Below, piece by piece: positions 57,783 to 60,206 of a stretch of 64,000 nucleotides of DNA. Origin of the DNA: a bacterium (GTDB lineage: Bacteria; UBA8248); assembly GCA_965207065.1 (NCBI GenBank), contig OZ242260.1, positions 3,744,001-3,808,000 of the forward strand, written 5' to 3'. The notes beneath the pieces were generated by a model. It saw nothing but the letters and a program-made list of their open reading frames with translations. It did not search any database and was not told the DNA's origin. How positions within the stretch are numbered: the stretch's first letter is position 1; each line of letters opens with the position of its first letter. The position numbers were made by a program, and so were the translations under genes.

Positions 57783-57926
57783 GCCCGAAACATGACTATC
57801 GCAAGATAGTCCTGATTCGCGTATAATTCTCACTCGTTAGCCCACCGCATCTCTGTGACTTGTTCCGCCCGGACTCGTTTCGGAAACGGCTTTCCCATGG
57901 GCAGGCGCCGCGATACACCGGATTTC

Positions 57927-58712
57927 ATGAGCTCTAACAAACTCCCGGCACTGGCATACAGACCCGCTGCCCAGGAGCGCGAACTCACCGGAAAACTCAT
58001 CGCTTCCACGAGCGCGGACGAGCGCGAAGCGCTGGGCCAGAAACTGCTCGACAACATTTGCCGCAGCCTCAAAATCCCCAGGACGCGCCTGCGCGTGTTC
58101 GAAAAGCGCCAACCCCACAAGCTGCGCGGCGGAAAACTCGCCTACAAGCTCTATGGCACCTATAACTGTGAAACCGCGGTGATCGAAATCGCCAACCTGA
58201 CTTCGGTTCGCAAGCAGGTTGTCGCGGGCAAGACGTTTCTCGATACCCTCATCCACGAACTCATGCACCACATCGACAGAAAATTTCTCCGAATTCCCTC
58301 CACGCCCCATAGCCCCGGCTTTTACAAACGCATCGAGGACCTCAAAACCAAACTCATGCGCATGAAGAGCGGGGAGCGGGTACCCCCGCAAGAAGCCGCC
58401 TGGGAGCGACCCAGAGACCTGACGGCGGCTCTCGAGGCGGCGGCCGCAAACGCCCGTGGGAAAAACGATAGTCAAGACCGGCAACAGACAAATGAGGCGA
58501 TCGCGGAGGATGTTCGGCCCGAAACGAGAAAATCCAGGTTGTCCCCACAGGATGAAACGGAATCCCTCTTTCCGGCGCCACCAGGTGAACCAAGCGCAGC
58601 GAAACCCCGGAAAAAACCACCACGCGCGCGCGAAGGAGTGAGCACGCCTCCGAAAAATCCCCAAAAAGTCGCTTCGGGAGAGAAAGAACCGCAGCTGTCG
58701 TTCGATTATTAA
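57927..58712 (+). CDS. SprT-like HExxH metalloprotease with a disordered C-terminus (start uncertain)
   Basis: LYGTY, DTLIHELMHH, H..GFYKRI. Confidence 0.7.
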   Translation: MSSNKLPALAYRPAAQERELTGKLIASTSADEREALGQKLLDNICRSLKIPRTRLRVFEKRQPHKLRGGKLAYKLYGTYNCETAVIEIANLTSVRKQVVAGKTFLDTLIHELMHHIDRKFLRIPSTPHSPGFYKRIEDLKTKLMRMKSGERVPPQEAAWERPRDLTAALEAAAANARGKNDSQDRQQTNEAIAEDVRPETRKSRLSPQDETESLFPAPPGEPSAAKPRKKPPRAREGVSTPPKNPQKVASGEKEPQLSFDY

Positions 58713-58910
58713 TTTTCTACAATCTACTTTAGATAAACAATATTAAAACTTGAAATAAAAAGTGAAAAAAACTCAAGAAATCTACCCTTCAAGGACCGTC
58801 TTTCGTTCCCACGTTCGGGCGGTTGTGTTTCACTCTGCGATTGGGTAAACAAAGGGACTGGGCATACGCCTTCATACAAACAAACGAATATCGCAGAGGA
58901 GTTTCCTTCT

Positions 58911-59603
58911 ATGAGACCGGCTAACGATTCCGTCCCGAAACCCTGGGGACCGCTGGCGGGTTTTTGGTCCTGGCAATACCTGAACCTGTGGAAGACCATC
59001 AAACTCGTCACGAGCAAACGGGTCAAGAGTTTTTATGAAAAATTTCCGAACGTCCTTCCCCCCGGCGCCGATTTCCCCGACTTCGAACTCAAAGACATTC
59101 AAGGAAACAGCCACCGCATGTCGGACTATCTGGGCAAGAAATACGTGGTGATGACCACGGGGGCCATCACGTGACCGCCATACAGGCGGCAGGTGCCGTT
59201 TTATGAAGAGTTGCAGGAGAAATACGCGGACCGCGACGTAGTGGTCTTCAATCTCTACGTGAGGGAACCCCACGCAGGCGAGCGCGGATTCCCCGAGATC
59301 AGAAACCATGAATCCTACGAGCACAAGCGGAGCTACGCGCAAGAGCTGGCCGATATCAAGAACATGGAAACCAACATCCTCGTCGACGAGATGGACCAGA
59401 AGGTCCACGCCATGCTCGGAGACCTGCCGAACACCATCTGGCTCATCGGCAAGGACGGGAAAGTGGCTTACAAATGCACCTGGTCGAACGCCGAACACGT
59501 GGATGAATATCTGGCCCGGATGGTGAACGAAGACCCCGCATTCGAGGGAATGCCAAGAATCGAGCAAACCATCTTCACCGCTCGCGCGAGCACCGCGATC
59601 TAG
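58911..59603 (+). CDS. Deiodinase-like thioredoxin-fold selenoprotein (TGA 59172-59174 read as Sec), 230 aa
   Basis: The two ORF-track fragments are in frame across one TGA: PDFEL..VVMTTGAIT-U-PPY..YVREPH..ILVDEMD..LPN; SECIS-like hairpin follows. Confidence 0.85.
59175..59205 (+). promoter_or_regulatory. Putative bacterial SECIS element
   Basis: CAUA-C-AGGCGGC-[AGGU]-GCCGUUU-UAUG stem-loop; loop lies 17-20 nt after the UGA. Confidence 0.7.
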
Positions 59604-59621: not shown

Positions 59622-59651
59622 AGCGCCCCCTCGTGAGTGGGGGCGTTTTTT
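59622..59651 (+). terminator. Rho-independent terminator after the selenoprotein gene
   Basis: gcgccccc-tcgtgagt-gggggcgt followed by a T run. Confidence 0.75.
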
Positions 59652-59681
59652 CTGCATCACAAACCATGGAGGAATCGGGAC

Positions 59682-60206
59682 ATGGATGCGCCGACTATCA
59701 TCAAAGAGCGCCTCGAAGCCTACGGGATGAGGCTGAGAGAGGTTATGGAAGACGTCACCGATGAGGACTTGACCCTTCAACCCGGTCCGAACGACAACCC
59801 CATGGGCTGGCTCATCTGGCACATGACGCGCTTTGAGGACAGGACATTTTCGTTCCTCGGCGGAACGCAGGAGCTTTGGATAGAGGGGAAATGGCACGAG
59901 CGCTTCAGCATGGAGCCCGACCCCGAATGCACCGGCGTGGGCTTCACGCTCGAACAGGTTCTCGCGCTTGAAGTCAGCAAGGACGCCCTGATGGGTTATT
60001 TCGAAGCGGCGAGAGAGAAGACTCTCGCCTGCCTCTCAAGTCTGAGCGCGGCGGACTTGGATCGGGAAGAAGTCGACTTCGCCAGCAAGAAGCCCATGAA
60101 ACTCGGACTGGTGCTGGGCAGGTACTTGGGCGATCACATCTCCCACATCGGACAAATCTGCTATCTCAGGGGCCACATCGCAGGCTGGGGGCGATACCCC
60201 ACATAG
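59682..60206 (+). CDS. DinB/YfiT-family metal-dependent protein
   Basis: GGAGG RBS; NPMGWLIWHM..ED; DHISHIGQICYLRG. Confidence 0.88.
   Translation: MDAPTIIKERLEAYGMRLREVMEDVTDEDLTLQPGPNDNPMGWLIWHMTRFEDRTFSFLGGTQELWIEGKWHERFSMEPDPECTGVGFTLEQVLALEVSKDALMGYFEAAREKTLACLSSLSAADLDREEVDFASKKPMKLGLVLGRYLGDHISHIGQICYLRGHIAGWGRYPT

Follow-up and report, generated by a model that had tools for sequence, protein, structure and literature searches.

Is a TGA codon in the middle of a bacterial gene a lesion, or is it read as an amino acid? The question is raised by a locus in a 64,000 nucleotide (nt) stretch of a bacterial genome of the GTDB lineage UBA8248 (assembly GCA_965207065.1, contig OZ242260.1, positions 3,744,001 to 3,808,000, defined here as "the window", whose numbering is used throughout). 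Two forward-strand open reading frames (ORFs), 58911-59174 and 59193-59603, lie in a common frame with one internal TGA between them. The first-pass annotation of this DNA had taken the pair for a single gene split by that TGA and followed by one terminator, which encodes a selenocysteine (Sec)-dependent thioredoxin-fold protein of about 230 residues akin to iodothyronine deiodinases. It named three places where such a reading could fail, namely the residue that homologs carry at the TGA, the sequencing reads across it and the Sec machinery of the genome. Both the shared frame and the terminator were confirmed. With a probability that we put at about 0.92, 58911-59603 forms a single functional gene, whose product is a cytoplasmic selenoprotein of 230 residues in the "deiodinase-like" family of prokaryotes. 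We read the gene as Sec-encoding because the TGA is conserved, Sec pairs with Cys in homologs, a hairpin just downstream covaries, the Sec machinery is present and both halves are under purifying selection.

Translated through, 58911-59603 yields 230 residues in which TGA 59172-59174 (codon 88) is the single recoded codon, in the context TTGAIT-U-PPYRRQV. Searching species-representative genomes with tblastn, we identified 29 loci with full-length matches (54-95% identity), of which 28 span residues 1-230 and one (L038) spans residues 5-230. All 29, like the window, have TGA at the codon-88 column, and the terminal stops of the same relatives vary (TAG, TAA or TGA). A metagenome scan detected 51 loci, 46 of which cover the column, and every one of the 46 has TGA, down to ~32% identity. 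The remaining five are partial and end short of it. In total, all 75 relatives with sequence at the column have TGA there (29 genome and 46 metagenome loci). Eight partial cyanobacterial loci (L039-L046) span residues 158-222 only and are uninformative for the Sec column. Two paralogs, 43% and 41% identical, are also encoded in the same genome; each has a single TGA, in the context GAIT-U-PP[YF]RRQV, and scores above the Pfam T4_deiodinase cut-off (64 and 52.5 bits). In one paralog the 36 nt around the TGA are so alike that its contigs aligned to 59163-59198 of the window.

More distant homologs were collected by an exhaustive search of 1.84 billion cluster representatives, which returned 2,831 relatives at E ≤ 1e-3. 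Leaving out the query, we realigned the 149 best-ranked proteins, and 157 segments cover the codon-88 column. Cys occupies it in 146 segments, Ser in six, Gly in three, and Asp and Thr in one each; Trp or Arg occurs in none of the 157. For example, the Cys homolog P0062 reads FGANSCPPF. A further 14 segments without a residue at the column are truncated halves, some of which stop exactly at ...GAIT while others start just past it. The ratio of nonsynonymous to synonymous substitution rates (dN/dS), calculated against nine relatives, was 0.08-0.20 for codons 89-230, and 0.11-0.18 for codons 1-87 in the five of nine relatives with unsaturated synonymous sites. As the ratio is low on either side of the TGA, both halves are protein-coding. 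DNA runs of two other studies yielded contigs across all of this stretch, with no difference listed at 59172-59174, so that these contigs keep TGA rather than TGC or TGG, and assembly error as the source of the TGA is excluded on this basis.

The genome carries the Sec machinery. We identified selA (517 bits), a SelB wing domain in the gene adjoining selA, and selD (334 bits), all above the curated cut-offs, and aragorn found a tRNA-SeC with anticodon tca; selA, selB, selD and tRNA-Sec are therefore all present. The selD gene has one in-frame TGA of its own and thus would itself encode a Sec-containing selenophosphate synthetase. A general reassignment of TGA is not indicated, given that the luciferase-like neighbour gene terminates at TGA and that none of six neighbouring genes has an internal TGA.

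Two mutually exclusive hairpins are possible after the UGA, at 59185-59200 and at 59175-59189. The first (GGCGGC / AGGU / GCCGUU) begins 10 nt past the UGA and is our candidate for the Sec insertion sequence (SECIS). Its covariation was evaluated on 55 distinct sequences, comprising the window and 54 of 59 distinct 60-nt segments. Five TGA-bearing relatives, those furthest removed (L087, L089, L090, L093 and L095), have downstream sequence that cannot be aligned and were left out. Standard pairs occur in 99.7% of the 330 cells of this alignment, four of the six pairs have changes on both sides, and 0 of 500 shuffles were as good. Several of the compensating changes also change amino acids (Pro to Ser, Arg-Arg to Arg-Gly), and so conservation of the protein does not account for the hairpin signal. 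Folding of the RNA from the UGA on gives this hairpin as the minimum-energy structure, with -8.2 kcal/mol for the hairpin alone. The published model of bacterial SECIS elements (bSECIS), as quoted in a 2026 review, has a 3-9 nt loop in which G in its first two positions precedes a G or U, a stem of 4-16 base pairs (bp), 16-37 nt from UGA to loop, and an energy of -7.5 kcal/mol or lower (PMC13188914). The hairpin agrees with the model in every respect, with its AGGU loop, a stem of 6-7 bp, a UGA-to-loop distance of 16 nt, and the energy given above.

The loop is AGUU in other clades, and in the paralogs and the most divergent relatives a G-rich loop of 4-5 nt (AGGU, AGGUA, GGUC or GGUA) is retained at the same place, on stems of other sequence. 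In both paralogs the loop of this hairpin is AGGU or AGGUA and the stem differs by compensating changes. Among the five relatives left out of the alignment, L087, L090, L093 and L095 have a 4-nt loop starting with G (GAAA, GGUA, GGUC and GGUC, respectively) at a similar distance when folded singly, and L089 folded in the same way does not. The other hairpin, CCGCC/GGCGG at 59175-59189, was the first fold obtained from 59166-59245. We rejected it as the SECIS because it shows no covariation, its middle pair is broken in 15 of the 55 rows and its loop lies just 5 nt from the UGA. A search of the whole window with all Rfam families at gathering thresholds gave no matches, a result that speaks only for the models in that library.

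To which family does the protein belong? Direct hmmscan of the protein gave AhpC-TSA (48.6 bits, cut-off 26), T4_deiodinase (40.9 bits, cut-off 27) and Redoxin (40.1 bits), all above the Pfam cut-offs, the first two being the profiles that the first-pass annotation had in mind. A PF00837 search of the genome itself finds the two paralogs but not the 58911-59603 gene, which passes the cut-off in the direct hmmscan. When a profile of the family was compared with PDB sequences, the mouse Dio3 core (4TR3) ranked first (E 9.5e-10), TlpA came next and Dio2 (9H48) was fourth (E 5.5e-07). In the HMMER alignment to 4TR3, GSCT[U->C]PPF lies opposite TGAIT-U-PPY, YIEEAH opposite YVREPH and LVLD opposite ILVD, and the deiodinase motif matches claimed in the first-pass annotation are thus borne out far beyond chance. 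In detail, U88 falls on Dio3 Sec170 (Cys in the crystal construct), T87 on Thr169, Y116/E119/H121 on Tyr197/Glu200/His202, and H133 on His219, where Dio3 residue numbers were derived from the chain and Dio2 numbers were mapped to Dio3 via the alignment. T87, U88, P89 and P90 are invariant in the family alignment. A proton relay proposed for Dio2 consists of Ser127, Thr129, Tyr157, Glu160, His162 and His182, at the edges of the deiodinase-specific insertion (PMC11592359). Five of these six positions correspond to invariant residues (T87, Y116, E119, H121 and H133). An extra segment follows E-x-H at residues 119-135, and it is modelled with a predicted local distance difference test score (pLDDT) <50.

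The active-site signature of peroxiredoxins is P-x-x-x-T/S-x-x-C. The protein has M81-T-T-G-A85-I-T-U88 instead, with Met81 and no Pro at -7 and Ala85 at -3, and Gly84 and Ala85 are invariant in the family. CxxC or UxxC is also absent, the motif being U-P-P-Y, and the family alignment has no second conserved Cys, column 88 being its sole invariant Cys/Sec column. Since the peroxiredoxin signature, a CxxC/UxxC motif and a second conserved Cys are all lacking, we place the protein in the deiodinase-like branch of the thioredoxin-fold clan, as a predicted one-Sec enzyme that relies on an external thiol. The thioredoxin-fold, deiodinase-related protein that had been proposed is supported by the sequence and profile searches.

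An AlphaFold model, built on a 13-sequence alignment (mean pLDDT 72, predicted TM-score 0.74), has a thioredoxin fold with two extra N-terminal strands. VIA-align gave structural Z-scores of 16.5 for Bcp1 (3DRN), 15.3 for AhpE, ~15 for ResA, 14.6 for Dio3 and 14.4 for Dio2; among single-domain structure matches Dio3 had the most residues aligned (161, with 22% identity). No transmembrane or signal-like segment was detected (maximum 19-residue hydropathy 0.41). Residues 1-50 (58911-59060) are strongly conserved, with invariant W19, S20, W21, Y23, L24, K28, T29, K31, S35, R37 and K39. This part is amphipathic and basic, too little hydrophobic for a membrane span, and modelled with low confidence. 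It might stand in for the anchor of the animal deiodinases, as a membrane-surface or dimerisation element. The C-terminal tail (residues 206-230, 59526-59600) is conserved as N-x-D-P...T-x-x-x-x-T-x-I, always with T-x-I last before the stop codon; both paralogs lack this tail, which is not part of the thioredoxin fold.

Comparison with known systems supports this placement to different degrees. With the prokaryotic deiodinase-like family (Pfam00837) the protein shares the thioredoxin fold, the T4_deiodinase match, a Sec-UGA at the deiodinase active-site position, Cys homologs, and a bSECIS with G in a small apical loop just downstream. However, the tables of the 2022 and 2026 reviews give the motif of that family as UxxC, whereas the protein reported here has U-P-P-Y and no conserved second Cys. 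The Nitrospinota-labelled subfamily to which it belongs, with the conserved N-terminal 50 residues and C-terminal tail, was set against the published family by their descriptions. The animal deiodinases Dio1-3 have Sec at the same place in T-U-P-P-F/Y, share the Tyr, Glu-x-His, second His and Thr of the proposed relay as well as peroxiredoxin-like N-terminal strands on a thioredoxin fold, and include the best sequence relatives of solved structure. Unlike these, the bacterial protein is without an N-terminal transmembrane anchor and without the proximal or distal Cys, Ala85 replaces Ser167, the loop between the two histidines is five residues shorter, and the SECIS is bacterial and inside the coding sequence rather than in the 3' untranslated region. 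One would not expect thyroid hormones to be its substrates. The BCP/PrxQ and AhpE peroxiredoxins (PF00578) resemble the protein in top Pfam score, top structural Z and one catalytic chalcogen residue where helix 1 starts, but it lacks their signature and has a putative deiodinase-type E-x-H...H insertion region. TlpA/ResA oxidoreductases have the same fold with similar hidden Markov model and structure scores, but theirs is a CxxC dithiol and the protein here has one Sec with no partner Cys.

From these features a mechanism can be proposed. SelB with Sec-tRNA(Sec) would bind the hairpin at 59185-59200, and codon 88 would be read as Sec rather than as a stop. U88 lies at the N-terminal end of the thioredoxin fold's first helix, and its selenolate may then serve as catalytic nucleophile, with help from a network of Tyr116, Glu119, His121, His133 and Thr87 that is homologous to the proton relay of deiodinases. 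Selenium in its oxidised state (Se-OH, Se-S or Se-halogen) would be reduced by an external thiol, either thioredoxin or a low-molecular-weight thiol; a thiol from outside is needed because no second Cys is conserved.

Several observations weigh against a deiodinase-like selenoprotein. Two RNA-library contigs match the gene, at 58811-59099 and 58887-59074 (the 5' leader and N-terminal half), and neither bridges the TGA; such libraries may also contain DNA. The z-scores of folding energy against shuffles are unremarkable for the hairpin region (-1.1 to -1.3), and the case for the SECIS rests on covariation, not stability. In Pfam, AhpC-TSA outscores T4_deiodinase, and the clan overlap rule would label the protein AhpC-TSA. 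Its best NCBIfam match is deiodinase_rel NF038285 (E 2e-21), with a score of 76.6 against a cut-off of 250 and over profile positions 181-324 of 347 only; judged by its profile match, the protein is a relative of this hypothetical equivalog, not a member. The relay Ser (Dio3 Ser167) is an invariant Ala85 here. The model falls to a pLDDT <50 in two places, the active-site loop (85-95) and the presumed deiodinase insertion (119-131), Foldseek ranks Dio3 47th, and the modelled fold alone cannot separate peroxiredoxins, TlpA/ResA and deiodinases. An alternative to a selenoprotein would be a dead gene or two unrelated small ORFs, in which case the TGA would stem from a nonsense mutation or faulty assembly and the sole product, if any, would be that of the 136 amino acid (aa) downstream ORF. 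The halves listed by public annotations and the lack of an RNA contig across the TGA would fit such a gene. Against it are the TGA in all 75 relatives to ~32% identity and in both paralogs, the dN/dS of the upstream half, Cys at the column in full-length homologs, a covarying hairpin at SECIS distance, the Sec machinery, and independent assemblies that agree on the TGA. We regard it as extremely improbable, and the conservation data effectively refute it.

The chemistry of the selenoprotein is a separate matter. A thiol-dependent reductase or peroxidase-type redox role comes a little short of even odds and reductive dehalogenation is distinctly unlikely, with the rest left to something else. 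As a one-Sec peroxiredoxin-type peroxidase, U88 would reduce hydroperoxides, turning into a selenenic acid, and would be recycled by thioredoxin or a small thiol. AhpC-TSA as the top Pfam match and the best structural Z-scores to the Bcp/PrxQ and AhpE 1-Cys peroxiredoxins (15-16.5) speak for such an enzyme, as does a DinB/mycothiol-S-transferase-like gene just downstream in close relatives, and reviews hold that most thioredoxin-fold prokaryotic selenoproteins probably act in redox defence. Yet the signature Pro and Thr/Ser are Met81 and Ala85, with Gly84/Ala85 invariant, the deiodinase-type Glu-x-His and second His are invariant as well, and the DinB neighbour is missing at 69-76% identity, which leaves the peroxidase doubtful though tenable. 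The functional reading of the first-pass annotation was a reductive dehalogenase, which differs only in substrate and chemistry, as does the peroxidase. Here the selenolate would take I+ or Br+ from a halogenated phenolic, just as in the animal deiodinases, and the Se-halogen would be resolved by an external thiol. This would suit the position of Dio3 and Dio2 as the closest relatives by sequence among solved structures, the absence of the canonical peroxiredoxin motif, the three Sec-containing paralogs in one genome, and the alignment of T-U-P-P-aromatic and of the relay Tyr/Glu/His/His/Thr (PMC11592359) with invariant residues. In addition, the run behind one of the two RNA-library contigs carries the label sponge metagenome, and brominated tyrosine derivatives are abundant in sponges. 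However, relatives also occur in assemblies that are not sponge-labelled (for example a deep-water metagenome-assembled genome (MAG) and a "RIFCSP" MAG of aquifer type), none of the genes conserved beside this one is related to dehalogenation, Ser167 of the relay is Ala and the His-His loop is five residues shorter than in Dio3. Furthermore, we found no assay of any bacterial member of the deiodinase-like family in the open-access papers searched, and the authors who described the family in 2005 judged a different, redox function likely (PMC1088965).

The features of the locus are collected in the table. The deiodinase-like gene looks monocistronic because it has its own Shine-Dalgarno sequence, a 198-nt gap upstream and its own terminator, a hairpin at 59622-59647 with nine pairs (seven G-C) followed by TTTTTT. 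The MRPAND start is conserved among relatives.

Table. Features of the deiodinase-like selenoprotein locus and related genes. Coordinates are those of the window, except where a genome and contig are named (G000:C1).
Feature	Coordinates	Strand	Basis or remark
Shine-Dalgarno-like AGGAG	58897..58901	+	read in the sequence, 9 nt 5' of the ATG
Predicted deiodinase-like selenoprotein coding sequence, 230 aa, TAG stop	58911..59603	+	one frame with one TGA; full-length tblastn matches; dN/dS
UGA codon 88, predicted Sec, active site T-U-P-P-Y	59172..59174	+	TGA in 75/75 relatives; Cys in distant homologs; aligns with mouse Dio3 Sec170
Predicted SECIS hairpin, stem 59185-59190/59195-59200, loop AGGU 59191-59194	59185..59200	+	covariation, fold, bSECIS model
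Intrinsic-terminator-like hairpin and T-run	59622..59653	+	terminator scan, 3' of the TAG stop
Deiodinase-like paralog (L099)	G000:C1:2092769-2093380	-	one in-frame TGA
Deiodinase-like paralog (L100)	G000:C1:3060377-3060991	+	one in-frame TGA
selD (L004)	G000:C1:543537-544499	-	one in-frame TGA
Enoyl-CoA hydratase			upstream neighbour
Gfo/Idh/MocA oxidoreductase			upstream neighbour
285-aa ORF	57855-58712	+	upstream neighbour; HELMHH metalloprotease-like (HExxH) motif
DinB_2 / mycothiol-S-transferase-like	59682-60206	+	downstream neighbour, 79 nt from the selenoprotein gene
Luciferase-like oxidoreductase		opposite	downstream neighbour
DEAD-box helicase			downstream neighbour

When examining the genomic context we found the block to be syntenic in close relatives, and the clade at ~50% identity has another neighbourhood. 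For the 285-aa ORF, Pfam gave nothing at E ≤ 1e-3. No other upstream neighbour persists as far; the ORF occurs in most relatives down to 69% identity. The DinB_2 gene was detected only in relatives above ~82% identity, and as it is restricted to close relatives it is a recent neighbour, not a conserved partner. The 285-aa ORF and the luciferase-like and DEAD-box genes persist further. Across the window and the loci of the relatives compared, the neighbourhood offered no functional partner or clue.

In public annotations, a word-indexed protein search showed that the C-terminal piece of 127-137 aa is called a "hypothetical protein" in 60 of 61 matches, and the 87-aa N-terminal piece is sometimes called too (P0064). 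The close subfamily is systematically cut by gene callers. The splitting foreseen in the first-pass annotation is thus real, but the pseudogene call expected there is not what the records carry, the halves being labelled "hypothetical protein" instead. In place of these truncated entries, the halves should be joined, both here and in the two paralogs, and annotated as selenoproteins.

The novelty that the first-pass annotation implied does not stand, as the family has been catalogued since 2005 in Sec and Cys forms. In that year a study of Sargasso Sea sequences (Zhang, Fomenko and Gladyshev) reported the "deiodinase-like protein" (Pfam00837) as a new bacterial selenoprotein family, with four Sec sequences, Cys homologs and a bacterial SECIS, and proposed a redox function other than thyroid-hormone deiodination (PMC1088965). 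An analysis of the Global Ocean Sampling data in 2008 counted 22 Sec-containing deiodinase-like sequences, in a table that gives no motif (PMC2398784), and the family is still tabulated in the reviews of 2022 and 2026. The BSepDB paper places among the most selenoprotein-rich bacteria an assembly that matches by name the one with our locus L032 (54 genes), together with two other Nitrospinota-labelled assemblies (PMC13326102). The selenoprotein and deiodinase-like readings hold, and the gene is an ordinary further member of a known family. It adds little to the selenoproteome surveys of 2005-2026, being one more thioredoxin-fold selenoprotein in a lineage already among the richest in them.

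What the gene retains is its value as a clean bacterial deiodinase homolog for biochemistry, with a single Sec, no resolving Cys, the relay residues, and a soluble form without a membrane anchor. It is a long shot, and more speculative still than dehalogenation by this protein, that the Sec-containing deiodinase-like paralogs, three per genome, are true selenium-dependent reductive dehalogenases for halogenated tyrosine- or phenol-derived natural products, such as those in which sponges and seawater abound. If so, they would be a third kind of biological dehalogenase, beside corrinoid and flavin enzymes, and the bacterial functional counterpart, possibly the evolutionary source, of the animal thyroid-hormone deiodinases. 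A bacterial homolog of this kind could show whether dehalogenation chemistry predates animals.

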